Shown here: piece after piece, positions 14,501 through 56,450 of the stretch
How the letters are laid out: the number at the start of each line of letters is the position of its first letter
Position numbering within the stretch: the stretch's first letter is position 1
Source: Alphaproteobacteria bacterium
GTDB lineage: Bacteria; Pseudomonadota; Alphaproteobacteria; RF32; CAG-239
NCBI GenBank assembly: GCA_017467515.1
Contig: JAFUSU010000028.1
Coordinates: 41,735-105,734 of the forward strand
Direction of reading: 5' to 3'
Length of the DNA: 64,000 bases
Translations under genes and position numbers: made by a program
The notes under the pieces: generated by a model
Seen by the model: the letters and a program-made list of their open reading frames with translations, nothing else
Told to the model about the DNA's origin: nothing
Database searches by the model: none

Positions 14501-14546
14501 AACGACTCACACGATGAGTCACACTGTCGGCTTTAAGGATAATTAA
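11511..14546 (+). CDS. Large surface lipoprotein (1011 aa), unknown function, G+C-richer than its flanks
   Basis: It has a signal peptide plus lipobox (MKMKKIFAVVATIVALCAVTGC). It is a continuous ORF with no recognisable domains. Confidence 0.8.
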   Translation: MKMKKIFAVVATIVALCAVTGCGKDSLGGSNYDTESKGLTTQPKQVSCRQVSLKTPEADGAITRSMRAAADEDWSKPDGLFEVTTLCEQRFVGVADADTLKKYEVRNRYRSFGVVNKPRYIKSIANLREGSPVLTMDNLPDGRVRHLVKNKDGEDHSLDYSLVEESFVESDTTWVKDRAGNRKGFVRCKDSWENLKFQNREVTDLGVDSAKWHKYKVVDIYNPTLISHLDCGAFKVSYIVWEWTGSGDPDFPDDEWEVIRYFTKNEWITPEKISDLTGKANSGFEVYAFLSDGTEKFYCKKSVDLSNSIEALKRDTVTTSDFEWKALDAVLYNEGTDGALYQKKDSIWVQPLKVTYQTNVNKGSREYLLKREGRAYWVDPLGENHYFKEGSWNTADTDKGWEKSDLAADNTYKYILLTSSIAPTYLGLSYSASSELALRMLKDGDNKLIGYKVMNYDIKRVTPVSDYYTYAELWGVYSKGEPQKIKEFGTHTGVSVITPEAQTITVTDWNITDGQPQWYGESRLSERKDTLKDGDHIIGVFHITPIKKTYATRTNKSDDKFQVTWDKTITFTDEFGKDWDGFITLDPKPSDKGGVKTMVDLSDEDDYQRKQMTTTMNLVVREDNADYTGEVIFRKKVEKEELIEGPTVTPSWTWFNNGQGGTGSLKITYRLKLGGPKEINVSQDEEWSITNEAKSHIILSSASADHQNIDNSISWGTTTSSNPQTGVTLYTTTGTIKDHYSTLVDGYTTKKQTATYTFSILGKSYSYDFPAPSDMTVAYKTSSLVNGNRTASESGKNYDVYDHTGTVTATVSSASDGNQTQDATDLKEIWVAKNDPTNPDFNFDATWHAGRGNRFYTGAQWCDGFLYSNDNNYFIVAYFFSLNHDKTKESLVKTETYTIPKSEMGTPTTPFNGVMWDPAKGKAIPCLITVDGEGWSLGTRYADGTAVTKRHGREEAVSSGVKNLAENDNATPSPIIATSWSEAKKNGHIYYTAGWHTTTHTMSHTVGFKDN

Positions 14547-26805: not shown

Positions 26806-28527
26806 TTACTTACGACGCAAAAAAGAAGGAATTTCCAAATTCAACTTATCATCCTCAAACTCATTATCGAAATGAGGTTGTTCTGCAGCGGCTCTGGCTG
26901 CTTCTTCCTTTTCGGCTTTTTTGCGATATCGTTTAGCAATAGAAATACCTGTTACCCGTTCAATTAAAGTCGGGGTGTATTCAGGTGTCTTGTTAACAAT
27001 CAACTGTTCCGGCTCTTCAGTGCGTCGAGGAGCAAAAACGGAAGGATGCGGATTGTGATTAGGGAATAATTCCGGCTCTTCTTCTGTAACAACGGAAGTT
27101 TTAGCCGTAAAAGTATTTGTATTTGCAGATAAAATCTCTTGCATTTGCGTATCGAGATTAATATCTTCATTTTTGCTAATAATAGTTTGGAACAAAGATG
27201 GTGCTTGAGGCATTTCTGGAAGAATTGTCGAGTTTTCAAAATCTTTAAGCTCGGTAAATTGCTCATCACCGGCAACAGCCTGTATCTGAGGCTGTACTTC
27301 TTCCTGTATTGGCTCAGGAAGAACTTCTTGTTCCATATCTTCCGGTTCATCGTTTTCAAAAACATCTTCATGAGATTTTTCAACCGGATTCTCAATCTCA
27401 TTGCTTTCATCTAAGGAAGCAAGAGGTTCGATAGTTTCAAGCTCAGCTGCAACGCTCAATGGTTGCGCTTCCGGATTTTCTGATTCCGGAGTAAAACTTT
27501 CCTCGATGTAATTAACATCTGTTTTCTTTTCAGGAGCTTTGACTGCGGGGCAAACACCGCCGCCAATGCCTGTTGCTACAATAGAAACACGAATTTTTCC
27601 GGCTAGGCTTTCATCAAAGCTTGAACCGAAAATAATATTAGCATCATCATCAACTTCTTCTTTAATGCGGCTGGCGGCTTCGTCAATTTCAAACAAGGTG
27701 ATGTCAGAACCGCCTGTAATATTAATCAAAACGCCTTTTGCACCGTGCATAGAACAATCATCCAGTAATGGATTTGATAAAGCTTGTTCAGCGGCTTTAA
27801 CGGCGCGATTTTCGCCTTCAGCCTCGCCGGTTCCCATAATTGCTTTACCTTTATCTTCCATAATACTCTTAATATCAGCAAAGTCTAAGTTAATTAAACC
27901 CGGCATCAACATTAAATCGGTAATAGAACGAACGCCGGCATATAACACATTGTCAGCCATAATAAAGGCATCGGCCAAGGTTGTTTTTTTATCGGCAACA
28001 CGGAATAAATTTTGGTTAGGAATGATAATGATACTATCAACGGAGTTTGTAAAATCTTCAACAGCGAAGTTAGCTGTTTCCATACGTTTTTTACCTTCAA
28101 ATTGGAACGGCTTGGTTACGACACCGACTGTTAAAATTCCTTTTGATTTAGCGATTCTGGCAACAACAGGAGCAGCACCGGAACCTGTTCCGCCGCCCAT
28201 ACCTGCAGTAATAAAGACCATATTGGCGCCTTCCAATTCTTTTTCAATTTCTGCGGTAGCTTCCTCTGCGGCAGCGCGACCGACTTCAGGACGAGCCCCG
28301 GCACCTAATCCTTGAGTGGTTTCTAAACCTAATTGGATTCGTCGTGAGGCTTTGGAATTAGTCAGAGCCTGAGCATCTGTATTGGCAACAATAAAATCAA
28401 CGCCTTCGAGGTTTTGATCAATCATATTATTAACGGCATTCCCGCCGCCGCCCCCGACACCGATAACAGAAATTCTTGGTTTCAGGTGCATTACATTACT
28501 TTCTGGAATGGCTAATTTAATTGACAT
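26806..28527 (-). CDS. ftsZ: Cell division protein FtsZ with long acidic linker
   Basis: [13 protein letters not shown], the GGGTGSG tubulin signature and the C-terminal [10 protein letters not shown] peptide. Confidence 0.95.
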
Positions 28528-31104: not shown

Positions 31105-32379
31105 ATGAAATTGAAATTGAATAAATCAATTATCGAGGCCGCCGCTCCGCTCGAAACGCAGGATTTGCTTATATGGGACGAAGTTTTACCGGCGCTTTTT
31201 GTGTGTGTTAGACCGTCAGGGCGCAAAAGTTTTTATGCTATGTATCGGTTACGCAATCGAAAACAACAAAAAATCAAACTTGGCGACTTTCCACAAATGT
31301 CGGTTGATGAGGCTCGCGAAAAATGCCGCGCTCTGACAAACCGCGCCTTCGATGGTTTTAATCCGGTGCAGGAAATCCGCGACCGGTGCGCCGTTGAGGC
31401 TGACCTCGCTTATTCGGCCACGGTCCGCGACCTCAAAGAAAAATATTTTGCTGAACACGTTATTCATAAAAAGGAAACGTCCGCAAAAAATGAGGTATCG
31501 TATTGGAACGTTCATATTTTGCCGTATATCGGCGACAAGCAAGTTCGGGCGGTTACTGGCGGCGACATTTCGTTTATTCATAACTCTATCGCTAAACAGC
31601 CAAGCCGAACCGGCTATAAAACGACGACAGCAAACCGCGTTCTTGAAATCCTCAAAAAGGCGTTTAATTTGGCCGAGGAGTGGGACTGGCGCGACGAAGG
31701 CTCCAATCCCTGCCGAAAGGTCAAAAAGTTTAAAGAGCGCAAAAGAAAACGCTTTTTAAGCGTTGCTGAAGTGCAAAGGCTCGATGCCGTTTTGCAAAAA
31801 TACCTTGCTTCGCCGGATTATCGGCACCGGCAAATTGCGCGGTATATCCTTTTATTACTCTACACCGGCGCCCGCAAAAACGAACTTATGTGTGCCAAGT
31901 GGGCAAATATTCGGCCGGAACGCGGCGTTCTTATCCTGCCGGATACAAAATCGGGCGAAGTTCAAGAATTACAAATTCCCGAAGAAGGCTTTTTAATCTT
32001 GGATGATATCCGCGCCGACCAAAAGAAAAAACGGCCGAACTCCGAATATATTTTTGACGGTCATATTCACGGCCAGCCGTTGAAGGATGAAGGGCGCCAT
32101 TGGGATAATATCCGCGCCGAGGCTAAACTCGCCGATTTTGTGTTGCACGACCTGCGGCATAGTTTCGCGTCGTTTGTGGCTATGACGACCGGTTCCTTAT
32201 TGGTTATTCAAGAAACGCTCCGGCACGCCGACCCGAAAACGTCGCAACGTTACACCCATTTCTTCAATGATCCGCTCCGTTTGGCGGTTAATAAAACAGC
32301 CAGCACAATAAAATCCGTTATGAAAAATGAAAAAGTGGTTGATATTGAAACCGCGCGGCGCCTGCAAAACGCGTCTTAA
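31105..32379 (+). CDS. int: Tyrosine integrase, P4-like with DUF4102-type arm-binding N-terminus
   Basis: The N-terminus is ...LLIWDEVLPALFVCVRPSGRKSFYAMYR...LGDFPQMSVDEAR. The catalytic R...HDLRHSF...Y residues are present. The ORF-track start at 30793 is a stop-free AT-rich leader. Confidence 0.9.
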   Translation: MKLKLNKSIIEAAAPLETQDLLIWDEVLPALFVCVRPSGRKSFYAMYRLRNRKQQKIKLGDFPQMSVDEAREKCRALTNRAFDGFNPVQEIRDRCAVEADLAYSATVRDLKEKYFAEHVIHKKETSAKNEVSYWNVHILPYIGDKQVRAVTGGDISFIHNSIAKQPSRTGYKTTTANRVLEILKKAFNLAEEWDWRDEGSNPCRKVKKFKERKRKRFLSVAEVQRLDAVLQKYLASPDYRHRQIARYILLLLYTGARKNELMCAKWANIRPERGVLILPDTKSGEVQELQIPEEGFLILDDIRADQKKKRPNSEYIFDGHIHGQPLKDEGRHWDNIRAEAKLADFVLHDLRHSFASFVAMTTGSLLVIQETLRHADPKTSQRYTHFFNDPLRLAVNKTASTIKSVMKNEKVVDIETARRLQNAS

Positions 32380-32855
32380 TATTCGCGACCACGTCGTTTG
32401 CGCTCCGGTAAATTGTGCGCGTTCATATATTTAACAATTCCTTCCTTTGCCAAAAGGTCGGCGATAGCGTTATTTATGGCGCCGGTCTGATAATGTCCGG
32501 TGTGTGCTTTGATTTTTTCTATTGTGAGGCCTTCCGGCATGATGCGGTTAATTCGATACGCCCATTTTTGGCATTCGAGCCGGTTTCTTTGTTGTTGCGG
32601 TGTTAATGGTTTGTCTTTTATGGTGCCTTGAATGAATGCGATTGCCGTTTGGCTGTCTGTGTAGACTGTATGTGGACCGGTGGCGCGGCTGGCTATCGTT
32701 AGGGCGTAATATATCGCGTATAGCTCGCCGACGTTGTTATTCGGCAGTTCTATCCAATTTGAAAATATACGGCGTTTTTCGCCGTCAATTATTAAACAGC
32801 CGATTCCTGCCACTCCGAAACGTTCGTTATATGAGGAATCGGTGTATATTATCAT
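32376..32855 (-). CDS. RNase H (type 1) family protein
   Basis: DEDD pattern IYTDSS, VGELYAI, VYTDSQ and NAIADLLAKEG. The start was chosen at the ATGA overlap with the upstream spanin stop. Confidence 0.75.
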   Translation of the reverse strand: MIIYTDSSYNERFGVAGIGCLIIDGEKRRIFSNWIELPNNNVGELYAIYYALTIASRATGPHTVYTDSQTAIAFIQGTIKDKPLTPQQQRNRLECQKWAYRINRIMPEGLTIEKIKAHTGHYQTGAINNAIADLLAKEGIVKYMNAHNLPERKRRGREY

Positions 32856-33043
32856 TTTTCGCACCTGCAGGCTTTTATGACGAGTTCCTGGCAATCAAAG
32901 CCGTTTTCGAGGTCAAGGACCGTGTCGCCTTTGGTGCAGGTGTTGACCGGACAACAATTAACCGAAACGTATTTAACGTTCGCCGCGCAACTGCTGACGG
33001 CAAGCGCGAAGGTTAATATTATAAATCGTTTTGCAATCGTCAT
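32852..33043 (-). CDS. o-spanin (Rz1-like outer-membrane lipoprotein), overlapped with the i-spanin
   Basis: It has the lipobox LAVSSC and is small and Cys-rich. It overlaps the 3' part of the i-spanin gene in another frame. Confidence 0.65.
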   Translation of the reverse strand: MTIAKRFIILTFALAVSSCAANVKYVSVNCCPVNTCTKGDTVLDLENGFDCQELVIKACRCEK

Positions 33044-33251: not shown

Positions 33252-33721
33252 ATATTTAACTCCGTTGAAATAGCTTCTAACCGATTGCGCCAGCCTTTGC
33301 CGTGAGTGTTATATGTCCGCGCCTGGCTATAACTCCACATTCTTTCGATAAAGTATAGCGTGCAGATATTATCCGGCGCCTTGCGGGCGGCTTCAATCGT
33401 TTTCGGTCCGATTATTCCGTCGTCGGTAACTTTGAGCGCCCTCTGCAAAATCTTAATTGCCGGTTTTATGCCGTGATTAACGGCGGCGTCGAAGGTCAAA
33501 ACATCCAGCGGAAACGGCAAAAGTTCGCATTTTGACGCGTTCCAATAATCGCGCTTATATATGGCTATTGCGTCGTCTTGCGTTAAAGCGCAAATATCAA
33601 GGTTCGGGTATGCGGTTTTCGAAATGCCGTATTTCGTTAAACCGCCGGTATCTTTCGGGTCATTGCAAAGCACGCCCTCGCGCCGCAATGTCATATTTAC
33701 TGCAAAATTAAAATTATTCAT
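33248..33721 (-). CDS. Endolysin, glycoside hydrolase 108 plus PG_binding_3 type
   Basis: REGVLCNDPKDTGGLTKYGI, DYW and a C-terminal peptidoglycan-binding-like segment. Confidence 0.8.
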   Translation of the reverse strand: MNNFNFAVNMTLRREGVLCNDPKDTGGLTKYGISKTAYPNLDICALTQDDAIAIYKRDYWNASKCELLPFPLDVLTFDAAVNHGIKPAIKILQRALKVTDDGIIGPKTIEAARKAPDNICTLYFIERMWSYSQARTYNTHGKGWRNRLEAISTELNI

Positions 33722-34460
33722 GGTGCGGTCCTTTTATTTCTATATTGTCAAATTTCATTCCGGTAATCCGGCCATTTATCATTAGGCCGAATTTTTCAAC
33801 GTCCGTGAACATTTCAAAAAAGAAAACAAGCCAACTTTTGACGACCTCGATCGACATTTCGTCGGTGGCTAAAAGTTCGCGCAAAAGGCCGATATGCGTT
33901 GATATCCACATTTTGAAAATTTCGTTGACGTAATTTATTTTATCTTCCGGCCATCCTTGCGCCGACAGGCGGTCTTTTATGGTGTTTTTAACGTCTGTAA
34001 TCGTCGCCGCTGTTGGTTGGTGGTGGGTTTTTCGATAGCTTACAAAATCGCCGTCCGGTATTTTGCCGCTGCAATAATCAGTAAAAAGTGTCACGAACGC
34101 CTTATAATAGGCCTCAAATGCGGTTTTTACTAAAAATTGATAAAATTTATTGCGTCCTGTGTCCGGATCAATCTTCAAATCCGAAATCCGACAAGTAAGG
34201 CCATATATCCGTTCGGCGACTTTTTCGTATCGTAATTTACAAACTTCCACCTTTTCAACCTGGCGGTCAATCTGTGCGCGGTATCGTTTCGAGCATATCT
34301 GCAAAACGACGGACGCGAGCCGCCGGAGCGGTTCTTCGTATTTTACCCAAGCCAAAACGCCCAAGCAAAGGAGCGCTATTGCGAGCAGCCCCCAAATAAA
34401 CGGATTTCCTGCCGCCAAAAGCTGAACGATAACGTCCCAGTCGAGTTTTACTTCTGACAT
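33714..34460 (-). CDS. Membrane-anchored hypothetical protein at the holin position
   Basis: It has a single N-terminal TM (FIWGLLAIALLCLGVLAWV) and overlaps the endolysin start. No homology was recognised. Confidence 0.5.
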   Translation of the reverse strand: MSEVKLDWDVIVQLLAAGNPFIWGLLAIALLCLGVLAWVKYEEPLRRLASVVLQICSKRYRAQIDRQVEKVEVCKLRYEKVAERIYGLTCRISDLKIDPDTGRNKFYQFLVKTAFEAYYKAFVTLFTDYCSGKIPDGDFVSYRKTHHQPTAATITDVKNTIKDRLSAQGWPEDKINYVNEIFKMWISTHIGLLRELLATDEMSIEVVKSWLVFFFEMFTDVEKFGLMINGRITGMKFDNIEIKGPHHE

Positions 34461-34484
34461 TTCTCGCGTCCCCCTCTGCTGGTG

Positions 34485-34718
34485 TTAGGCTTGTTTTTTG
34501 TTGTCGTCCGGTTCCGGCGTCATTTGCTCTAACTCATTTATGCGAGCGCGCCATGCTCTCCGGTTGGCGACAACATCTTTATATTTTGCCTTCATTTCGT
34601 CGAGTTCTTCTTTGGTGCCGAAAACTAAGGCCTCGTTGACTTTGTTGTCGATATAGTCAGTTTGCGACAATAATTGGTGCTTTTCGCAAAGCTCGCGTTG
34701 TATATCTTTGTTTTTCAT
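34485..34718 (-). CDS. Small coiled-coil hypothetical protein
   Basis: The 77-aa ORF overlaps the RT 3' end by 62 nt. Confidence 0.35.
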   Translation of the reverse strand: MKNKDIQRELCEKHQLLSQTDYIDNKVNEALVFGTKEELDEMKAKYKDVVANRRAWRARINELEQMTPEPDDNKKQA

Positions 34719-35820
34719 GGTATAGGATCCTTTTTAAAAGTTGTGTCATGTTATAAACTGTTTTTGCTGCGTTCCGGCGTTTCATTGAGCCGGTCCAGCT
34801 GACGAAACTTGTCAACACGTCTTTCTCGGTCATTTGACCGGTTTCGACGAGTTTTCCTTGTTTCTTTAATTTTCGGCGTTCAACTGTTATCGAACGGCGA
34901 CAAGGCTTTTTAAGTATCTTGCCGGTTTTGGTTATAAAAAACCGCGTTTTCAAAAAGCAGAAGCCGTGCTTCAAATCGACAATGCGCGTCTTTTTCGGAC
35001 TGGCGGTTATTTTATGGGTATCGTATAATTTCGTTAACTTCTGCAAGACGTCTTCGAGTTGTTGCTTATCGTGCGAAATTATATAACTGTCGTCCATATA
35101 ACGGCCGTATGCCTTAAAGCCGCATTGGTCTTTTATGAAGTGGTCTATTGCGTTCGGATATGCGATGGCGTGAATTTGACTTGTTTCGCTGCCAAGTCCT
35201 AGGCCTTTTTCGCCGAACGCGTCGACGAAGTCGTCGGTTAATTTCAAAATGTCGGCATCTTTTATGTATTTTCGATAAATTCCTTTTAAGACGTCGTGAT
35301 CTATATTGTCGAAATAGCTTTTAAAATCTATCAAAAGAACGTAACCTTCTTGGCCGTATCTGCGAAAATGGCGGCGAAGGTGTGTAACTAGTCTGTTTAT
35401 GGCAAATAACGTTCCTTTGTTTTTTTGGCTGGCGCCGTTGTCGTAAATGAGATTATGTGTTAAAATCGGTAATAAAACGTTTTGGCAAAGCGATTTTTGA
35501 ACGACACGCTCTGAAAAATGAACGCTCCGAATATGTCGTAATTTGCCGCGCTCGTTTATATCAAAGCAAATAAAGCCTTTTCGAATGTCTTTTCCTTCGA
35601 GTAAATCCTGCCGCGCTCCGGCGGTGCGTAAAATAACGTTCAAGAGATAGCGCTGAACGCTTGCTTTCCAAGTGACGCCTTTTGCCGCGTCAATGGCGGC
35701 GGTATAAAGCGCCTTGAATGAAGAAACGTTTTCGAAGCGGTCAAATCCTCGTAAAAAATCGTTTCGCTTTTCCTGGCGCCTTTTTTGGCGGTTTTCGTAT
35801 CTTTTTTTTCTTCTACTCAT
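34657..35820 (-). CDS. DGR reverse transcriptase
   Basis: It has RT motifs including YMDD and the DGR-specific LGSETSQ ([I/L]GxxxSQ). It lies 270 nt downstream of the TR. Confidence 0.9.
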   Translation of the reverse strand: MSRRKKRYENRQKRRQEKRNDFLRGFDRFENVSSFKALYTAAIDAAKGVTWKASVQRYLLNVILRTAGARQDLLEGKDIRKGFICFDINERGKLRHIRSVHFSERVVQKSLCQNVLLPILTHNLIYDNGASQKNKGTLFAINRLVTHLRRHFRRYGQEGYVLLIDFKSYFDNIDHDVLKGIYRKYIKDADILKLTDDFVDAFGEKGLGLGSETSQIHAIAYPNAIDHFIKDQCGFKAYGRYMDDSYIISHDKQQLEDVLQKLTKLYDTHKITASPKKTRIVDLKHGFCFLKTRFFITKTGKILKKPCRRSITVERRKLKKQGKLVETGQMTEKDVLTSFVSWTGSMKRRNAAKTVYNMTQLLKRILYHEKQRYTTRALRKAPIIVAN

Positions 35821-36089
35821 TTAACTTTTGTTTCCTTTTATAAAAAAAATGTGCCTTGCATAGCGTCGCGGGTTTTGTTTAGCTATATAGAGAACAGGCA
35901 TAAAATAAAGAAACTTCCCGCAAATTCTTTACTATGCACACGCTTTTGGCGTGGCGTTCGCCTGGCTTCGTCAAGGCACTTATTTACAGAGAGCGAATAA
36001 ACTCCCCGAAGGTCGTTTGTTCCTTCCTTATCGTTGTTGCAGCGCTGCTTTCGTTCCTGTGAACTACTCGGTCGGGCTTAACAAGGGAT

Positions 36090-36215
36090 CAGACCGGCAC
36101 GCGAATGCCCGTGTTCGTGCAGTTGTTACTGTTGGCATTCCCGTTGTTGTTGACATTGCACGCGTTCGTGGAGTTGTTACTCGCTGGTGACGAAAGCCAC
36201 CAGTTCGTGCGGCCA
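36090..36215 (-). repeat. DGR template repeat (TR)
   Basis: It is 126 bp and matches 36728-36853 apart from 18 positions, all of which are A in the TR sense strand. Its translation is AAC(Asn)-rich. Confidence 0.9.
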
Positions 36216-36240
36216 CAAAGAGTATATACAACAAACAACC

Positions 36241-36651
36241 TTATTCTGCCGTCTGGATTTTCGCCGACTTTTTCCAATTTTTGAGAAGGCTTACTTCCTT
36301 TTGCAGAATATCCGCTATTGGCGCAATTCTGCGCTTTTCAATGGAAATACAATTTACTAACCTAATGAGCCGGTTTTGTATCTGAAAGCAATTATTTATT
36401 GCTCTTGTTTGATACGCTTTCCGCATTTTCATTTCGTCTTCTGTGGTTGGATAAATTGAATTTGCGGCTATTATATTATCCATTAATTCATCGGTTTTCT
36501 TAATAATATCTTGTCCTAATAGTAATCTATATTTTTTCGGTATTGCTTTTTCGTTCATGGCGAATTTTGTAATCTCGGTTTGTAATTGCTGGCCGGAAAC
36601 GTAAAACGCCAATTCTGTTACTTGTCTTTTCCGTGCGAGAACATTACTCAT
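36241..36651 (-). CDS. avd: DGR accessory variability determinant (Avd, four-helix-bundle family)
   Basis: It is a 136-aa basic helical protein located between the target gene and the TR, as in Bordetella phage BPP-1. Confidence 0.7.
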   Translation of the reverse strand: MSNVLARKRQVTELAFYVSGQQLQTEITKFAMNEKAIPKKYRLLLGQDIIKKTDELMDNIIAANSIYPTTEDEMKMRKAYQTRAINNCFQIQNRLIRLVNCISIEKRRIAPIADILQKEVSLLKNWKKSAKIQTAE

Positions 36652-36670
36652 TTTTCCTTTCCTTCTTATC

Positions 36671-36692
36671 GCGACCGCACGGTGGCGGTCGC
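36671..36692 (-). promoter_or_regulatory. GC-rich hairpin downstream of VR (candidate DGR homing hairpin/cruciform)
   Basis: Stem GCGACCGC acggtg GCGGTCGC lies 35 nt beyond the VR 3' end. Confidence 0.5.
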
Positions 36693-36711
36693 ATTAAAGA
36701 TATGACGGCTT

Positions 36712-37926
36712 TTAGCCGATACGGAAGCAGACCGGCACGCGAATGCCCGTGTGCGTGCAGTTGTCACTGCTGGCAGTCCCGATGGTGTTGACAAAGCACG
36801 CGCCCGCGGAGGTGCCACTCGCCGGTGACGAAAGCCACCAGCCCGCGCGGCCAGAACCGGCGTTGCTTAAAATTCTATGTTCTACGCTTGCGGCAAACCA
36901 TGGATATTGAACCGATAATCCTGCTTCCGGATTCCAATAATTAGTCGTTAAACAGAGGTTAGATCTTACTTGATGTCCATAAACTTCGATTTCGTTCGGG
37001 AGCCAAAGTTTGCCCATATCGCTCCAGTCGGCCGTCGTGCCGCCTGTCAAAAGTCCGCTTGCTGAATAACGACTGTCGAGCCAATTTCTTTTATTTATAA
37101 TTACATTCTGGAGTGCGGTCGGTAATCTTTGCAACAAACCTTTATTTGCCGCATTAAGACCGTGAGCGACGTTGTTATATGCGCTTGTAGTGTAATTGTT
37201 TACGCCGTTTAACCAAGCATAAACCGCTGACGCGAGCCACGGGTGAGCTTCGCTGGCGGTTCCGTTATTGTTATTTTGCGGATTCCATAAAACCTCGTTT
37301 GAAATGCATTCTTTTGTTATAAAGTCGATATGGTGACCGATTGATGTATCGGCTGCGCGGTAATATGTATCTATACCGACAATTCGCGCATTGAGGTTAT
37401 GAGCGGCGACTGTATCTGAACCGACAGTTCCTGCGGTGGTTGTAAATGGGATATAATCACCGACGTGAATACCTTTGAAATTTCCGGCTTGAATTCTCGC
37501 CTGGATCCACGCCCAAACGTTGGCATAACTGGCAATTTCGGTCGCGAATTTTGTTGCGAGGTTAACACCTGCATAACGTCTGTCTGCGTCCAGCGTCGCA
37601 AACATTTTGTTGTCTAACTGTTCGACGCTAGGACATTTATTTGCTTCGGTTCCTGCTTGTAATTGTGCGTCAGTTGCAAAAAAACCATTTACAGCGGCTT
37701 GAGCTTGCGAAATGGCGTTGTTCATTTTTGCTGTAATCGCTTTTTTGAGTTGCGTGTTGTCGGTTGCTGATGGCGTTAATCCTGCGTCTGTAATAGCGTT
37801 GATAATTTCGCGTTGTGGGTTTTCTAATGCGCCCGCAGGAATAACCGAGCCTTCTTGTCCGTTTGCCGGATCTGCGTTAACATAAGAAGCATTTGCTGAT
37901 TCGCCGAGTGGCGGTGTATATTTCAT
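36712..37926 (-). CDS. Tail fibre / receptor-binding protein, DGR target
   Basis: The N-terminus is tail-fibre-like (MKYTPPLGESANASYVNADPANGQEGSVIPAG). The C-terminal framework WWLSSPAS...GIRVPV carries the VR. Confidence 0.85.
   Translation of the reverse strand: MKYTPPLGESANASYVNADPANGQEGSVIPAGALENPQREIINAITDAGLTPSATDNTQLKKAITAKMNNAISQAQAAVNGFFATDAQLQAGTEANKCPSVEQLDNKMFATLDADRRYAGVNLATKFATEIASYANVWAWIQARIQAGNFKGIHVGDYIPFTTTAGTVGSDTVAAHNLNARIVGIDTYYRAADTSIGHHIDFITKECISNEVLWNPQNNNNGTASEAHPWLASAVYAWLNGVNNYTTSAYNNVAHGLNAANKGLLQRLPTALQNVIINKRNWLDSRYSASGLLTGGTTADWSDMGKLWLPNEIEVYGHQVRSNLCLTTNYWNPEAGLSVQYPWFAASVEHRILSNAGSGRAGWWLSSPASGTSAGACFVNTIGTASSDNCTHTGIRVPVCFRIG
36728..36853 (-). repeat. DGR variable repeat (VR)
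   Basis: See TR. It occupies the last ~45 codons of the target gene. The 3' 25 nt are identical to the TR and GC-rich (IMH-like). Confidence 0.9.
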
Positions 37927-37929
37927 TTT

Positions 37930-38538
37930 TTATTCTCCCTGTAAATAACTAAATTTAAAGATTGTGTGCGCTTGTTTTATGCGGTTGAATAGGCACTCCA
38001 GGTCCGTCGCGAATGTTATCGTGCAGAGGTGGTCGCCACAACGCGCGGAACCGGCGCGGGCGTATGAGATACGCGTCGAATCGACAATTGATATCATATA
38101 ATAGCTTTCCGAACGCGTGCCGCCGAGCCGATCGCCGCATCTAGCAAGACCGCAAATGGCCGGTGGTGTGGTTATAATATTTATATCATAACCGAGTGAT
38201 TGTGCCAATTTTGCGAAGTTTTCGATTGTCGGCGAAAAGCTCCGATTTATTTTGGCGATTATCTGTTGGACACGGTCCGCAACTGTCAAACCTTCGGCGT
38301 GGTTGCCGTGTATGCAAGTTTCGGGCAGTCCGAATTCTTTTTCCCAATCGAGCAAGGTTTCGTCGCAAGTTTCGGGGTGCATTTCGCGCAAGGCTTTTTC
38401 GGTGCGGTCGTGAATATATAAGAAAAAGTCGCCGACGGCTTGCGCGATTTCATTCATTGTGCCTTGGTCGCTTTGGCTCCATGCTGGTCCCTTTGGTAAT
38501 AGCTTTTTGAATAAATCCGTGTAATCTTGCTGATCCAT
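37930..38538 (-). CDS. Mu gp48-like tail protein (DUF2313)
   Basis: The LLPKGPAWS motif and its position after baseplate J. Confidence 0.75.
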   Translation of the reverse strand: MDQQDYTDLFKKLLPKGPAWSQSDQGTMNEIAQAVGDFFLYIHDRTEKALREMHPETCDETLLDWEKEFGLPETCIHGNHAEGLTVADRVQQIIAKINRSFSPTIENFAKLAQSLGYDINIITTPPAICGLARCGDRLGGTRSESYYMISIVDSTRISYARAGSARCGDHLCTITFATDLECLFNRIKQAHTIFKFSYLQGE

Positions 38539-52737: not shown

Positions 52738-52962
52738 TTATAACCCCCTGTGGGTAACTGTTTTAATTATGCGGGTTTTCTTTACGCCGAGTTCGGCATC
52801 AATGGCGTCAATGGCGGCTTTTATGTCGTCAAGACTGCGAAATGTAACGCTTTTTCCGTTGTGGCTGATGGTTGCGGTGCCGCTGGTGTATGCGTTGAAT
52901 AGTTTTTTTCGCCGTGCCTTCAAATCGGCGATTTCTTCCTCTGATAAATTTTTATTTGCCAT
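52738..52962 (-). CDS. Head-tail joining protein gpW-like
   Basis: It is 74 aa. The pattern ...ISHNGKSVTFRSLDDIKAAIDAIDAELG is like lambda W. Confidence 0.65.
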   Translation of the reverse strand: MANKNLSEEEIADLKARRKKLFNAYTSGTATISHNGKSVTFRSLDDIKAAIDAIDAELGVKKTRIIKTVTHRGL

Positions 52963-53093: not shown

Positions 53094-53164
53094 CGGACAG
53101 TAGCTCAGTTGGATAGAGTGCCGGAACGTGCGGCGTGTCGAAGGTTCAAGTCCTTCCTGTCCGA
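53094..53164 (+). ncRNA. tRNA-like element 1 (Arg-ACG-like, defective anticodon arm)
   Basis: It has a perfect acceptor stem (CGGACAG/CTGTCCG), a D arm identical in type to tRNA-Arg and a T arm GAAGG-TTCAAGT-CCTTC. The anticodon arm has only a 4-bp stem with loop GAACGTG (A33, T37). The total length is 71 nt and no CCA is encoded. TTGACT at 53042 is promoter-like. Confidence 0.45.
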
Positions 53165-53306
53165 ACCGCCCCTTGGATTTGCCAAGGTGGGAACTCGCGA
53201 GAGTTGGTTTCCGGTTGTTGCGCTTGCGCTGATGGCGTTTGCGTTCCATGACTAAAAAAACCGGTGTCTTTTGGGAATAATTTTTCTTGCAGAAAGAAAA
53301 ATCCCG

Positions 53307-53367
53307 CGCGTTGCTTGGCGATAGGTTCCGTATGGTTCACTAGTGGGTTCAATTCCCATCGACGCGT
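53307..53367 (+). ncRNA. tRNA-like element 2 (acceptor/T-arm minihelix, 61 nt)
   Basis: It has acceptor CGCGTTG/CGACGCG and T arm GTGGG-TTCAATT-CCCAT. Only about 29 nt lie in between, and they have no D or anticodon arm fold. Confidence 0.35.
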
Positions 53368-53377
53368 GATTTACTTT

Positions 53378-53446
53378 CGGATCGTGGCCAAATGTTAAGG
53401 CGCGTGCGACTGTAACGAATTGCGGGTTCAAACCCCGCCGATCCGA
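53378..53446 (+). ncRNA. tRNA-like element 3 (69 nt, no foldable anticodon stem)
   Basis: It has acceptor CGGATCG/CGATCCG, a 3-bp D stem and T arm GCGGG-TTCAAAC-CCCGC. The anticodon region CGTGCGACTGTAACGAATT does not pair. Confidence 0.4.
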
Positions 53447-53612
53447 CTTATGAACAAAACTTGAAGGAGCGTCGGTCGGCTCGGTTGCAAACGAAATGAC
53501 CGGCAGGGGAAACGCCGAGCGGTTGCAAACGTCCGGCGTTTTTCTTTGTGAAAAAATATAAAATAGTTCTTGACTTTTAATTTTTCCGTGTTTATTTTAT
53601 GCACAGTTTTGA

Positions 53613-53689
53613 CGCGGGGTAGAGCAGCTCGGTAGCTTACCAGGCTCATAACCTGGGGGTCGGTGGTTCAAATCCACCCCCCGCAACCA
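53613..53689 (+). tRNA. Phage-encoded initiator tRNA-fMet (CAU), 77 nt, CCA encoded
   Basis: It has the C1-A72 mismatch, anticodon loop CTCATAA, a self-consistent 27-43 pairing and T loop TTCAAAT. A promoter-like TTGACT lies at 53570, and a terminator follows directly. Confidence 0.9.
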
Positions 53690-53698
53690 TAAAAGCGA

Positions 53699-53728
53699 AA
53701 GGTGTCGAATTCGACACCTTTGTTTTTT
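53699..53728. terminator. Bidirectional terminator (18-nt perfect palindrome GGTGTCGAATTCGACACC)
   Basis: The palindrome is followed by a T-run on + and preceded by an A-run. It serves tRNA-fMet (+) and the 49-aa ORF (-). Confidence 0.8.
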
Positions 53729-53876
53729 ATTCTGAAATGCTGTATGCTTGGCAGGCTGGCTCATATCCGCGCTCGCACCGAACTTTATTTTCCCAAACAT
53801 CGCCAATTATCAAAAGAAAATATAAAAACGCAAAAAATGCTATTAATGAAATGAAATCTAAAATATTTTTAATCAT
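53727..53876 (-). CDS. 49-aa hydrophobic peptide (below the ORF-track cutoff)
   Basis: Hand translation gives MIKNILDFISLIAFFAFLYFLLIIGDVWENKVRCERGYEPACQAYSISE. An AAGG lies 11 nt upstream and the ORF ends at the terminator. Confidence 0.4.
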   Translation of the reverse strand: MIKNILDFISLIAFFAFLYFLLIIGDVWENKVRCERGYEPACQAYSISE

Positions 53877-53917
53877 GTTCTTATGCCTTTTCTAGAGGTC
53901 CCCTCAATCCGTGAGGT

Positions 53918-53994
53918 GTCGGGAGCTAGAAACACGCATAAGATCGTGCGAAGTTATTTCCCTTAAAGGGTCTTGTATTCCTTGCACTCCCGAC
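53918..53994. ncRNA. Structured hairpin element A (paralogue of 54129-54209)
   Basis: It has an 8-bp closing stem GTCGGGAG/CTCCCGAC. It shares the internal blocks AGTTATT(T)CCCT and TTGTATTCCT.GC with element B. Its 5' side also pairs with 54044-54066. Confidence 0.45.
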
Positions 53995-54521: not shown

Positions 54522-56450
54522 CTACGCAAACCGCGCAACAACGCGGCGGCGCTTGCGTTTCTGTAAGATTTTCGGCTTGGGGATATCCTCAACGTTGACT
54601 TCCGGATTAGCTTCGACGGCCTCGCGGACTTTTTCGGCGTATTCCTGCCGCGCCAGCATTTTTTCCCACCGACGCCTTAAATCCAGACCGGAGAGCTTCA
54701 AACCTTCAAGAGCGGCGAGTGAATAACCGAATATGTCGAGGGCTTCGTTGCGCTTGCGTCCTGGACGCAGGGCGTAATATCTTATTTTTCGGCCTTTACT
54801 GTATGAAGTTTTCGCTTCTTCGGCTGTTAATTGCACAAAGTGGTTTTCGTCGTAACTCATGTTGAAGTGACAATATCCGGCGGCGCCTTGATCTTCAATT
54901 TTTAGTCGCGAATAAATGACGTCTTTGACTGTATCGGTGCCGACTAAAAAGAATTCTAGGTTTGTTTTACGGAGTTTTCCTGGCGCCTTTTTAAAAATCG
55001 GCCGCCCTTCGCCTGGCATACCTTTGACCGCCCACACGCGCCGGTTCCATCGTTCTTTGCAAAAATTTCCAACCTGTTGCGTTAAATATCCGCTATCTAT
55101 ACAGCAGGCCGATATTGTCATTTCACCGGTTAAATCGTGTTTTATCGGCGTTTGTAATAGTTCGTCGAGTTCGTCCCAAACACGGGGCGCGGATGGGTCG
55201 CCGTATAAAACAACTTTGCCGAGGCCGTAACTTTGATTTTTGGCCGTCCATCCGATTCGTTCAACTTCCAGTCGGTCATCCTGGACGTCGACGCCGGAAG
55301 TTATAACAACAACTTCAACCGGTGCTGTTTCGTATGTTTCGCGACGTGCGACCAGTTTATCTTCTTCGACGCGCTCGCCTTTATCTTCCCAAACTTCGCC
55401 AAGCGAGGTATTAACAAACGTCTTTAATGCTTCCGGATCATCTTTGGCATCAAGGAATGCGCGGACGATTTCTTCTAACTTTACCCAGGGTGAGTATCCT
55501 TCCCAAAGTGCAAAACCGGCGTGTCCGTGAAAAGGCTTTGTTGCTCGCCATTCGCCTTGACCGATGGCGTGCCACCGCTCGACGTCATTCCAAAGTGTGC
55601 CGCAATGTTCGCAAGCATAAGCGGCGGTTTCCGGCCTGCCGTTTCCGGCGTCGTCTTTTTCCCATTTTACCTGCGCCCAGGTCAAACGTTGCATTTCGCC
55701 GCAATGCGGACATGGCACAAAATAAAACCGCATATCCGAATTTTTGAATGACGCGTCAATTTTACTTATGCCGGAAATCGTCGGCGTTGAACATTTGATT
55801 ATTTTTTTATTCCAGAAGGTCGTTGCGCGCTTCATTGCGAGTTTTATCGGGTCGCCTTCCTTGCCTGCCGATAGCGGATAACGGTCTACTTCGTCCATAA
55901 AAACAATTCTTATCGGGCGGCTGGCTAATCCCGCCGGAGAGTTCGCGCCGACCATTGTTATGTGGCCGCCTGGGAATGATTTATGAAGAACTGTGTTGCC
56001 GGTGTCTTTACCTTCCGCAACTTTGCCCTGCAGACACGGCGTGTCGCGGAGCATTGGTGCTAGTCGGTCTGTTGACCAGCTTTTAGCGACGTCTTCGGTC
56101 GGTTGTAATAATAGCATTGGACACGGGTCTTTATCAATGAAAAAACCGACAGCGTTATTTATTATTTCGGTTTTGCCGACCTGCGCCGACGCGACAATGG
56201 TTATTTCGTCGCAGTTAATATCCGATATTGCATCCATTATTCCGCGCTGGTATTCGGCGCGGCTGGTCTGCCATTGCCCTGGCTCCGCTGAACTTTCCGA
56301 AGACAATATGCGATTTTCGTCCGCCCACTCTGATATTGTTTGGCGTGGCGGAAGTTCTAAACCTTTAAGAAACCCCTCGCAAAAGGTTTTAACGCCTTCG
56401 AAGACTAACCATTCGTCCGAGTATTGTTCTAACGCATTTGTCGCACTCAT
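54522..56450 (-). CDS. Terminase large subunit, lambda GpA family
   Basis: The GpA N-terminal pattern (TISEWADENRILSSESSAEPGQWQTSRAEYQRGIMDAISD), Walker A-like QVGKTE and size. Confidence 0.9.
   Translation of the reverse strand: MSATNALEQYSDEWLVFEGVKTFCEGFLKGLELPPRQTISEWADENRILSSESSAEPGQWQTSRAEYQRGIMDAISDINCDEITIVASAQVGKTEIINNAVGFFIDKDPCPMLLLQPTEDVAKSWSTDRLAPMLRDTPCLQGKVAEGKDTGNTVLHKSFPGGHITMVGANSPAGLASRPIRIVFMDEVDRYPLSAGKEGDPIKLAMKRATTFWNKKIIKCSTPTISGISKIDASFKNSDMRFYFVPCPHCGEMQRLTWAQVKWEKDDAGNGRPETAAYACEHCGTLWNDVERWHAIGQGEWRATKPFHGHAGFALWEGYSPWVKLEEIVRAFLDAKDDPEALKTFVNTSLGEVWEDKGERVEEDKLVARRETYETAPVEVVVITSGVDVQDDRLEVERIGWTAKNQSYGLGKVVLYGDPSAPRVWDELDELLQTPIKHDLTGEMTISACCIDSGYLTQQVGNFCKERWNRRVWAVKGMPGEGRPIFKKAPGKLRKTNLEFFLVGTDTVKDVIYSRLKIEDQGAAGYCHFNMSYDENHFVQLTAEEAKTSYSKGRKIRYYALRPGRKRNEALDIFGYSLAALEGLKLSGLDLRRRWEKMLARQEYAEKVREAVEANPEVNVEDIPKPKILQKRKRRRVVARFA

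Follow-up and report, generated by a model that had tools for sequence, protein, structure and literature searches.

Origin of the question and genomic setting

A reverse transcriptase (RT) gene lies beside a pair of 126-nt repeats in a prophage, and this raises the question of whether the locus is a working diversity-generating retroelement (DGR) and, if so, which protein it diversifies. We analysed a stretch of 64,000 nt, hereafter the window, in which the cassette occupies a compact 3.3 kb (positions 34657–37926). The locus is a complete, genuine DGR in a prophage, aimed at the tip of a tail-fibre protein, and an unexceptional representative of a well-known class; very probably, it is an intact phage DGR. 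Its features, all on the minus strand, are as follows.

34485..34718, minus strand: 77-aa ORF (orf77), which shares 62 nt with the 3' end of RT; its membership in the cassette is uncertain
34657..35820, minus strand: DGR reverse transcriptase, 387 aa (RVT_1, phrog_1423 and 8ub7 matches)
35831..36081, minus strand: predicted structured RNA of ~250 nt filling the TR-to-RT spacer (Rfam RT-2, RF03077)
36090–36215, minus strand: TR, non-coding, 126 nt, 35 adenines
36241..36651, minus strand: Avd-like accessory variability determinant, 136 aa, pI 9.8 (fold, and position between VR and TR)
36671..36692, minus strand: GC-rich inverted repeat 35 nt downstream of VR, a candidate target-recognition hairpin or cruciform
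36728..36749, minus strand: IMH-like invariant GC-rich 3' end of VR, 22 nt, the same in TR at 36090–36111
36728–36853, minus strand: VR, 126 nt, covering the final 42 target codons, with 13 nt between its end and the stop codon
36712..37926, minus strand: DGR target, tail-fibre/receptor-binding protein, 404 aa (DUF6273, PHROG matches and gene position)

Family matches agreed with the original prediction of a hybrid prophage with a lambda-type head and a Mu-type tail, and the G+C content of the host flank (39%) agreed with the AT-rich host proposed there. The host assignment was based on FtsZ neighbours named 'Alphaproteobacteria bacterium' (69–82% identity), and the host is apparently an uncultured alphaproteobacterium of the gut or rumen that is AT-rich.

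TR and VR differ only at template adenines

Independent realignment of TR and VR was gapless over 126 nt each and yielded 18 mismatches, the same counts as in the original prediction, whose translations of both repeats were also correct. The TR base was a sense-strand adenine at all 18 mismatches, replaced in VR by G (11), C (4), or T (3). With 35 A in the 126 nt of TR, the hypergeometric probability of all 18 mismatches falling on A was 1.6e-12. This adenine-only pattern was observed directly. A scan of the window allowing up to 10 substitutions, together with partial patterns, found no second VR.

The mismatches were also unevenly distributed within codons: 17 of the 18 lay at codon position 1 or 2, as did 33 of the 35 TR adenines. 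When TR was read in the VR frame, 11 AAC codons were present and no stop codon was reachable. Since the TR adenines are arranged as AAC, AAT, ACG, and AGT codons, diversification could recode about 23 residues on the surface of the receptor-binding DUF6273 domain without creating a stop codon, corresponding to ~3e19 protein variants. The homology of the repeats was extendable by 5 nt past GGTCTG, which added one A-to-C mismatch and one non-A (C/T) mismatch.

Reverse transcriptase and accessory protein

The RT matched Pfam RVT_1 (4.9e-15) and phrog_1423 (7e-73); none of the NCBIfam RT models came close to its cutoff. The best PDB match was 8ub7, a Bordetella phage RT (3.6e-17); the Bordetella bRT scored 65.9 bits, the best-scoring group II RT reached 34.9 bits, and identity to Brt was 28% over 253 aa. 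The motif (I/L/V)GxxxSQ in domain 4 is characteristic of DGR RTs (PMC3521204). Here, the motif was found as LGSETSQ at residue 209, and the catalytic YxDD motif as YMDD at residue 241, both as previously reported for this locus, with a spacing of 32 residues that was the same in Brt and in all relatives. Furthermore, all 12 RT relatives, at 31–67% identity, adjoined adenine-biased TR/VR pairs. The 8ub7 match, the motifs, and these DGR-associated relatives confirmed that the RT is of the DGR type.

The ORF at 36241–36651 had been proposed to be avd; its fold and position were consistent with this proposal, but curated Avd HMMs were not. The AF2 model was a four-helix bundle (pLDDT 83.5), for which Foldseek ranked 2gsc and 2rld (PF05635-type) highest, with target-normalised TM-scores (TMt) of 0.81–0.86, and BPP-1 Avd (4dwl) lower, with a TMt of 0.65. 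The protein is encoded beside TR, as is characteristic of DGR accessory proteins, whether Avd or of the HRDC type, and 8 related DGR loci carry a homologue in the same interval from VR to TR. Residues 33–88 matched phrog_3206, 'Avd protein of DGR' (8.4e-6). The score against NF033474 (DivGenRetAVD), however, was 13.8 bits versus the curated cutoff of 80, and Pfam, including PF05635, gave no match even at E = 10. Comparison with BPP-1 Avd by hhalign returned a probability of 0.2%, and PDB searches with the single sequence and with a profile returned nothing meaningful. The family is divergent, with just 10 clusters among 5.8 billion proteins. The accessory protein can be described as Avd-like by predicted fold and position, and weakly so by sequence.

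Natural alleles and activity of the element

To obtain natural alleles, public assemblies were searched for exact copies of the Avd and RT proteins. Three VR alleles occurred in contigs with an identical Avd; they differed at 30 of the 35 TR-adenine sites and at 0 of the 91 other sites, and TR was invariant (100% identical in all 10 related contigs examined). Variation in 36728–36853 was thus observed to be confined to TR-adenine positions between assemblies, as expected for a DGR in the original prediction. L063 and L067, two prophages with a background divergence of 0.2%, differed at 24 of the 126 VR positions, compared with 11 of the 4,947 positions outside it (Fisher P = 1e-31). The window and L063 differed at 21 VR positions and at 7 positions across the ~4.7 kb that remained, which comprised tail genes, avd, TR, and spacer. 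Strong conservation, with 0–1 differences, was seen for TR, avd, and the spacer RNA. Judged at the sequence level, this VR-confined, A-site variation among near-identical prophages shows recent mutagenic retrohoming. The earlier statement that the element is probably active was strengthened by these independent assemblies, whose three VR alleles varied solely at TR-adenine sites. Pattern scans in which TR adenines were set to N found nothing in viral contigs (full-length and 33-nt patterns) or in metagenome contigs.

These data bear on two alternatives. An ordinary duplicated segment or gene-conversion tract with normal mutation, i.e. a chance repeat, would account for the existence of a repeat, and nothing further favours it. 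The adenine-only pattern (P = 1.6e-12), the same restriction to A sites in two further independent alleles, and the DGR-type RT adjoining the repeat all oppose it; the TR/VR pattern, the natural alleles, and the L063–L067 comparison already refute this explanation, which we regard as vanishingly improbable. It is also very unlikely that the VR was diversified in the past and is now fixed in a lysogen in which the element is silent or inactive. That 22 of the 24 contigs with this Avd, from many samples, carried exactly the VR allele of the window indicates that the consensus-level VR is stable in that lineage, and several contigs were 100% identical over 4.5–8.4 kb. However, a DGR with rare homing in a clonal lysogen would also give a stable consensus VR. 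In addition, all ORFs were whole, the catalytic motifs were kept, and all parts were found, in agreement with the original view that the element is intact, and the TR, avd, and spacer RNA were conserved as described above. VRs differing at 24 of 126 sites between prophages with 0.2% background divergence imply that the activity was very recent on an evolutionary scale. We retained the interpretation of an intact phage DGR.

The diversified protein

In the 404-aa target, a tail-fibre adaptor at the N-terminus is followed by a helical neck and, at the C-terminus, by a globular DUF6273 domain. PHROG tail-fibre families covered residues 1–164, and Pfam DUF6273, which is already a published DGR target domain, was detected on residues 220–400 (E = 1.3e-7). 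The VR of a DGR lies inside a coding gene, usually at its 3' end; here it spans residues ~358–400 of 404. Searches with the target sequence gave no match in the PDB, and hhalign against Mtd was null. The AF2 model (pLDDT 79.8) had 9qa6, whose N-terminal domain is DUF6273, as its best PDB match in Foldseek, and it matched many BFVD proteins, both tail-fibre proteins and DUF6273 proteins of gut phages; for a C-type-lectin fold, Foldseek gave weak matches only. The gene is located directly after Mu Gp48 and Baseplate_J, which is the Mu tail-fibre slot. This slot, the tail-fibre PHROGs, and the DUF6273 end substantiated the prediction that the VR belongs to a prophage tail fibre.

An active DGR could instead diversify an accessory lectin-like fibre acting on glycans or mucus (Hoc- or tentaclin-like), with no switching of host tropism. 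DUF6273 also occurs in non-fibre contexts, namely capsid-associated tentaclins and a bacterial IgA peptidase; moreover, 404 aa is short for a fibre. We nevertheless consider this alternative unlikely, since the target gene follows Gp48 immediately, in the position of the Mu tail-fibre gene gp49, since PHROG families of phage tail fibres match the N-terminal part of the protein, and since the ORF list contains no other fibre-like ORF between Gp48 and the lysis genes. The unassigned ORFs in that interval were two, orf77 and orf248, neither of which had a family match. A receptor-binding tail fibre is the target adopted below.

The VR 3' end and the downstream hairpin

The last 25 nt of the TR/VR pair of the window were identical and GC-rich (about 68% G+C), as had been noted, and the 3' block that was invariant across the three natural alleles was 22 nt. 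TR and VR diverged directly beyond the 22-nt block, with a mixture of A and non-A differences, which is what an IMH/IMH* boundary would look like. By analogy with BPP-1, the segment 36728..36749 may act as the IMH and so give homing its directional signal.

The predicted 8-bp GC hairpin beyond VR, at 36671–36692, proved to be real. Its stem, GCGACCGC/GCGGTCGC, contains 8 bp, 7 of which are G-C, and closes a 6-nt loop, CACCGT; the DNA fold of the 76-nt hairpin region had a z of -3.25. An intrinsic terminator was rejected as an explanation, because the hairpin has no T-run and the terminator scan does not list it. BPP-1-type hairpins or cruciforms have a GC-rich stem of 7–10 bp and a 4-nt GRNA loop, and are located 4–34 bp from VR (PMC3240598). 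The stem found here conforms to this description, but the loop (6-nt CACCGT versus the critical 4-nt GRNA) does not, and the distance is 35 nt.

Relatives carried a GC-rich hairpin of different sequence 17–48 nt after VR. It was perfect in 6 of the 8 relatives examined, the loop being 5 nt long except in L060, where it was 8 nt; L002 and L004 had an imperfect G-T-containing repeat only, and a 4-nt GRNA loop was found in none of the 8. Most of the clade conserves the hairpin structure, but not the BPP-1-class loop rule. Its role would be in target recognition, as in BPP-1.

A predicted structured RNA in the TR-to-RT spacer

In a cmscan search, the full-length RT-2 model matched the spacer with 85.1 bits (gathering score 40; E = 5.8e-18), and the motif occupied the same place between TR and RT in four relatives (L001, L003, L056, and L058). 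The minimum free energy of the single spacer sequence was no better than that of shuffles (z = -0.34), so the structure claim rests on the Rfam covariance model. The main side result of this study, as far as covariance-model matches indicate, is that the spacer from TR to RT is filled by the RT-2 RNA in this DGR clade. BPP-1 has RF03022 (Phage_DGR) at the equivalent position, and the RT-2 spacer is presumed, by analogy, to be the counterpart of the 'Sp' region of the BPP-1 DGR RNA.

The open-access literature found assigns no function to RT-2 (RF03077). We propose, with moderate confidence, that RT-2 serves an entire clade of DGRs in gut and rumen phages as a cis-acting RNA module, an Sp equivalent that binds RT–Avd and primes cDNA, that it shares neither sequence nor architecture with the Phage_DGR motif of BPP-1, and that the cassette moves between phages of different bacterial phyla. 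If so, at least two distinct RNA scaffolds would have arisen among DGRs to serve one priming task, and the cassette of VR, avd, TR, RT-2, and RT would have moved across phyla, as it is found in an alphaproteobacterial prophage and in the contigs of relatives assigned to Selenomonadaceae and Oscillospiraceae. An orphan structured RNA would also gain a concrete, testable role.

Proposed mechanism

We propose a model based on the BPP-1 paradigm. A transcript would span avd, TR, the RT-2 spacer, and probably RT, and would be bound by RT and the basic four-helix accessory protein. The structured spacer would then position and prime the reverse transcription of TR, and unfaithful copying of template adenines would yield cDNA with random bases at up to 35 positions. 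The GC-rich IMH-like end and the hairpin downstream of VR would guide this cDNA to the 3' end of the tail-fibre gene, where it would replace the VR. As a result, the receptor specificity of the phage would be varied, which may amount to tropism switching. The known picture of how DGRs work is unchanged by this element. The three wild VR variants on near-identical backbones, the 35 known mutable positions, and the 3.3-kb cassette make it a convenient retrohoming system outside Bordetella.

Comparison with known DGRs

As originally stated, the order of target-VR, accessory gene, TR, and RT agrees with the BPP-1 annotation (mtd-VR/avd/TR/Sp RNA/brt), and orientation is also the same. In both elements the mismatches are adenine-only (repeats of 134 nt in BPP-1 and 126 nt here), the VR forms the 3' part of a gene for a tail fibre, the accessory protein is basic and has four helices, an RNA matching a structured Rfam family fills the TR-to-RT spacer, and an 8-bp GC-rich inverted repeat lies downstream of VR. 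Their RTs are homologous (28% identity), with IGSLTSQ in Brt and LGSETSQ here, and YMDD at equal spacing in both. In contrast, Mtd has a C-type-lectin domain, whereas the target here has DUF6273 and no detectable sequence similarity to Mtd; nor was any detected between BPP-1 Avd and the accessory protein. The RT-2 spacer RNA is about twice as long as Phage_DGR, and the hairpin loop is CACCGT (6 nt) instead of GAAA (4 nt). BPP-1 is a podovirus, whereas the prophage studied here is of the myovirus type and its baseplate is Mu-like.

DUF6273 targets with the VR at the C-terminus of the domain, as here, are known from Faecalibacterium prophages Lelie, CP11, Roos, and Pioen and from phages nd4 and nd12, and have been proposed to be receptor-binding or tail proteins of temperate gut phages. 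Unlike those elements, the present DGR has a host that is apparently an alphaproteobacterium rather than a member of Bacillota, a Mu-like tail module, and a single target. It provides an example of a DUF6273-type target in a prophage whose baseplate is Mu-like and whose host is apparently an uncultured alphaproteobacterium from gut or rumen. When 50,697 phage records were searched with the cassette by blastn, no near-identical DNA was found; the sole match, at 67% identity, covered 272 nt of the RT in Roseburia phage Shimadzu.

An RNase H gene was rejected as a cassette component, as it was absent from all related DGR loci. The closest relative found was L001 (JAGBKP010000191.1), a contig of a rumen Selenomonadaceae MAG, whose putative assignment to a different host phylum comes from MAG binning. 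Its gene order is that of the present cassette, it carries the RT-2 RNA as well, and all 19 mismatches of its 130-nt TR/VR pair fall at A. Identities were 67% for RT, 49% for the Avd-like protein, and 62% for the C-terminal part of the target, which is larger in L001 (704 aa, P0040) and has a different N-terminal part. For orf77, which had no family match, L001 has a 75%-identical counterpart in the same overlapping position.

Template and variable repeats

The minus strand of 34400–38200 was read again and the repeats were aligned by script. The features of the diversity-generating retroelement (DGR), with its neighbour orf77, are listed below.

34485–34718, minus: orf77, 77 aa, overlapping the 3′ end of the RT gene by 62 nt
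34657–35820, minus: reverse transcriptase (RT), 387 aa
35831–36081, minus: RT-2 RNA (RF03077), Rfam match
36090–36215, minus: template repeat (TR), 126 nt
36241–36651, minus: Avd-like ORF, 136 aa
36671–36692, minus: hairpin, 8-bp stem (7 G-C pairs) and 6-nt loop, 35 nt past the VR
36728–36853, minus: variable repeat (VR), 126 nt
36712–37926, minus: target protein, 404 aa

The TR and VR aligned without gaps and with 18 mismatches; the sense-strand base of the TR was A at all of them and was replaced in the VR by G (11), C (4) or T (3). The original prediction of a DGR was supported, and its claim of 18 TR/VR differences, all at TR adenines, was confirmed by this realignment. The TR contains 35 adenines, and 18 randomly placed mismatches would all be at A with a hypergeometric probability of 1.6e-12. 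In the target frame, 17 of the 18 occupy the first or second codon position. Translation of the TR in the VR frame gives GRTNWWLSSPASNNSTNACNVNNNGNANSNNCTNTGIRVPV; AAC codons number 11, 33 of the 35 adenines are at codon positions 1–2, and no codon can be converted to a stop by adenine mutation. The protein diversity reachable from the TR is approximately 3e19. A fuzzy search of the window for extra copies of the adenine-masked TR gave the TR and VR only.

The 3′-most 22 nt of the TR and VR were invariant across all alleles. Just past this block the repeats part, with ATCCC in the TR and CTTCC in the VR, and relatives show a recurrent GAT (TR) versus GCT (VR) at the same boundary. This divergence past the GC block is consistent with an IMH/IMH* boundary, in which the GC-rich 3′ end of the repeat would serve as a putative IMH.

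Natural VR alleles

Exact look-up of the Avd protein retrieved at least 24 public contigs from ruminant-gut metagenome assemblies and Logan assemblies, and that of the RT retrieved 23. Samples with the element include ERZ28656039 / SAMN15829989, SRR12529337, SRR12529327, SRR12529321, SRR35087653 and DRR872585. The TR was identical to that of the window in 10 of 10 fetched loci, and three VR alleles were found: that of the window and those of SRR35087653 (L063) and DRR872585 (L067). The alleles differed pairwise at 20–24 positions and, combined, showed variation at 30 of the 35 positions with a TR adenine and at 0 of the 91 others. Over 5.07 kb, SRR35087653 and DRR872585 differed at 24 of the 126 VR positions and at 11 of the remaining 4,947, a divergence of 19% versus 0.22% (Fisher P = 1e-31). 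Between the window and SRR35087653, 21 differences were within the VR and 7 outside it in the approximately 4.7 kb that run from Gp45 through the spacer. The proposed population test, asking whether VR variation is confined to TR-adenine sites, revealed the signature at the level of assembled consensus sequences, and VR turnover was shown to be recent. The window's allele was present in 22 of 24 contigs, several of them on 100%-identical backbones; the consensus VR is stable inside that clonal lysogen.

RT and orf77

The RT matched Pfam RVT_1 (4.9e-15) and phrog_1423 (7e-73). Its best solved relative was the Bordetella phage DGR RT 8ub7 (E = 3.6e-17, 65.9 bits), with group II intron RTs at 34.9 bits; identity to Brt, the RT of the prototype DGR of Bordetella phage BPP-1, was 28% over 253 residues. 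The motifs LGSETSQ and YMDD are 32 residues apart, with equal spacing in Brt (IGSLTSQ and YMDD) and in ten relatives, and (I/V/L)GxxxSQ is a published hallmark of the DGR RT clade (PMC3521204). NCBIfam holds no DGR-specific RT model, and every NCBIfam RT model scored far under its cutoff for this RT. Relatives of the RT from GTDB genomes and IMG/VR (67% to 31% identity) all adjoin a TR/VR pair of 86–130 nt, each with 9–20 mismatches, 90–100% of which are at TR adenines. Because all of them adjoin such adenine-biased pairs, association, in addition to the motif, was taken to place the RT in a DGR clade.

Family searches with orf77 gave no match. In L001 (JAGBKP010000191.1), a rumen contig, an ORF 75% identical to orf77 overlaps the RT at the same place, and orf77 may be a conserved neighbour in this DGR clade.

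Compared with L063 and L067, 50 of 65 nucleotide differences in the RT were within a 190-nt patch encoding residues 36–94 (35527–35714; RT nt 107–294). In 33714–34656, orf77 and orf248 had diverged from the same two loci by 12–15%, and the tail genes, avd, TR and spacer were at least 99.8% identical. The region is a recombination mosaic with one boundary within the RT gene.

Avd-like protein

The protein encoded between the VR and TR has a pI of 9.8, similar to that of BPP-1 Avd (9.6). Sequence evidence for its identity was marginal: it matched phrog_3206 (‘Avd protein of DGR’) at 8.4e-6, scored 13.8 bits against NCBIfam DivGenRetAVD (cutoff 80), had no match in Pfam or PDB sequence searches, and gave a null result in hhalign against BPP-1 Avd. 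Its family is small, with 10 clusters found. AlphaFold2, supplied with an alignment of those clusters, predicted four long helices (residues 11–31, 39–64, 71–101 and 106–129; pLDDT 83.5). The top Foldseek matches of the model in the PDB were 2gsc and 2rld, deposited as ‘conserved hypothetical’ and ‘S23 ribosomal protein family’ proteins, with a target-normalised TM-score (TMt) of 0.81–0.86; TMt to BPP-1 Avd (4dwl) was 0.65. We take 2gsc and 2rld to belong to the 23S-rRNA-IVS four-helix-bundle family (PF05635), which includes Avd. Homologues of the protein fill the VR-to-TR interval in eight related DGR loci. We concluded that this ORF encodes the DGR accessory protein, which has a predicted Avd fold and does not pass the curated Avd sequence models.

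Spacer RNA and hairpin

The TR-to-RT spacer is 269 nt long and was matched by the full RT-2 RNA model with 85.1 bits (gathering score, 40; E = 5.8e-18). RT-2 belongs to the ‘RT’ motifs discovered by Weinberg et al. beside RT genes; they linked only RT-10 to a DGR (that of BPP-1) and speculated on such a link for others (PMC5737381). RT-10, now Phage_DGR (RF03022) in Rfam, is located between the TR and brt in BPP-1. RT-2 occupies the equivalent position here and in four related DGR loci (L001, L003, L056 and L058), beginning 0–8 nt past an adenine-biased TR and ending at the RT start. We found no paper tying RT-2 to DGRs in the open-access literature. Since single-sequence folding of the spacer was no better than that of shuffles (z = −0.34), the claim of structure rests on the covariance model.

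Folding of the 76-nt hairpin region beat all 200 shuffles (z = −3.25). The hairpin was rejected as a terminator, having no T-run and being absent from the terminator calls. The same interval was inspected in eight related DGRs: in six, a perfect GC-rich hairpin with an unrelated sequence lies 17–48 nt past the VR, and in the other two (L002 and L004) there is an imperfect G-T-containing repeat only. The post-VR hairpins fit the ‘structure, not sequence’ behaviour known from the cruciform that serves target recognition in BPP-1. Cruciforms of the BPP-1 class have functionally critical 4-nt GRNA loops (PMC3240598); no such loop was found here, and those of this clade are mostly 5–6 nt. The loops here and in L001, L003, L005, L056, L058 and L060 were CACCGT, CTCGT, TTTTT, GTTTT and CTTGT, with 8 nt in L060.

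Target protein

The target gene follows those for Mu-type Gp45, GP46, Baseplate_J and Gp48, which is the Mu tail-fibre slot. Residues 1–164 matched phage tail-fibre PHROGs, and residues 220–400 matched Pfam DUF6273 (32 bits; cutoff, 23.5). The AlphaFold2 model had a pLDDT of 79.8, mostly >90 in the globular part, and its best PDB match was 9qa6 (E = 7e-6), an IgA peptidase of Thomasclavelia ramosa with DUF6273 as its N-terminal domain (PMC12402451). In BFVD, the model matched 26 viral proteins at E ≤ 1e-3, many of them named DUF6273, tail-collar fibre or receptor-binding protein. Classical C-type lectins appeared in the structure search as weak, short matches only, and no profile similarity to Mtd was detected. 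The CLec fold of the target is therefore putative here, and is supported by the literature for the DUF6273 family.

In L066/L070 (ERZ28653759 scaffold_8029), a 23-bp deletion in the target gene upstream of the VR (window 37092–37114) cuts the product to 314 aa; it is either a natural fibre knock-out or an assembly error. L071 (ERZ28019184 k141_221124) carries four G/T transversions 22–60 nt upstream of the VR (window 36875–36913), the rest of its 2.5-kb contig being identical. These are not of the DGR type because they are not at adenines, and may be low-coverage assembly noise.

Proposed mechanism

Information flow from TR to VR was restricted to adenines, and the components of the element are intact. 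The mechanism proposed here is modelled on work on BPP-1 (PMC3240598). The bRT–Avd studies of Handa et al. reportedly provide a further part of the basis. By analogy, an avd-TR-spacer RNA would be bound by RT–Avd, cDNA synthesis would be primed by the spacer, and adenines would be misread. The cDNA would then replace the VR in the stretch bounded by the upstream homology and the IMH-like GC block, with the hairpin possibly aiding. Approximately 23 residues of the DUF6273 receptor-binding domain would vary as a result, and host range with them. The element differs from the BPP-1 prototype in its spacer RNA family, its hairpin loop, its divergent Avd, and its DUF6273 target in place of Mtd. DGRs that act on tail fibres of temperate gut phages, some with DUF6273 targets, are already well described, and the mechanism is not new; two results are worth keeping, namely that RT-2 RNA can be assigned to DGRs and that three natural VR alleles are available on nearly identical backbones.

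Prophage and host

The surrounding features are as follows.

26806–28527, minus: FtsZ gene, in the host flank (left half, 1–31000)
32376–32894, minus: RNase H gene (Pfam RNase_H, 5.5e-17), between the lysis genes and the integrase
approximately 32.4 to beyond 63.9 kb, minus: prophage genes, head and tail modules

The head genes encode a lambda gpA-type terminase, a lambda-family portal, an S78 protease and a gpE-type capsid protein, and the tail genes a sheath and Mu-type DNA-circulation, gp44/P, Gp45, GP46, Baseplate_J and Gp48 proteins. These families bear out the predicted hybrid prophage with a Mu tail and a lambda head. Downstream of the DGR are two ORFs without assignment, a GH108 endolysin, a small ORF, the RNase H gene and a tyrosine integrase. 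The RNase H gene is 1.8 kb from the RT, which has no RNase H domain. It is kept in L062, L063 and L067, and every more distant relative lacks it at the DGR locus; therefore, it is probably not a cassette component.

The G+C content rises from approximately 0.39 in the host flank to approximately 0.46 in the prophage. The flank encodes FtsZ, Psd, PssA and further housekeeping proteins, and each of the closest named relatives of FtsZ (82%, 73% and 69% identity) carries the label ‘MAG: Alphaproteobacteria bacterium’. Judging from this G+C content and these relatives, an uncultured, AT-rich alphaproteobacterium of the gut or rumen is the most likely host. The closest relative of the cassette, L001 (RT 67%, Avd 49% and target 62% identical), has RT-2 RNA and the overlapping orf77 in common with it. 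L001 was binned as Selenomonadaceae, and the RT-2-bearing L003 was binned as Oscillospiraceae. Set against the alphaproteobacterial FtsZ relatives, these assignments suggest either that the cassette has spread across phyla or that phage contigs were mis-binned.

A 1011-aa ORF in the host flank (11511–14546, plus) had no Pfam match and a higher local G+C content (0.44–0.47). Between a gpW-like ORF (52738–52962) and the gpA terminase gene (54522–56450) is an insert of approximately 1.5 kb on the opposite strand from that of the phage genes. It contains (53094–53994) three tRNA genes, namely Arg-ACG, one at 53378–53446 called by Rfam only, and Met-CAT, and a match to sRNA-Xcc1 (RF02221) at 53910–53994 on the minus strand (56 bits; gathering score, 53).
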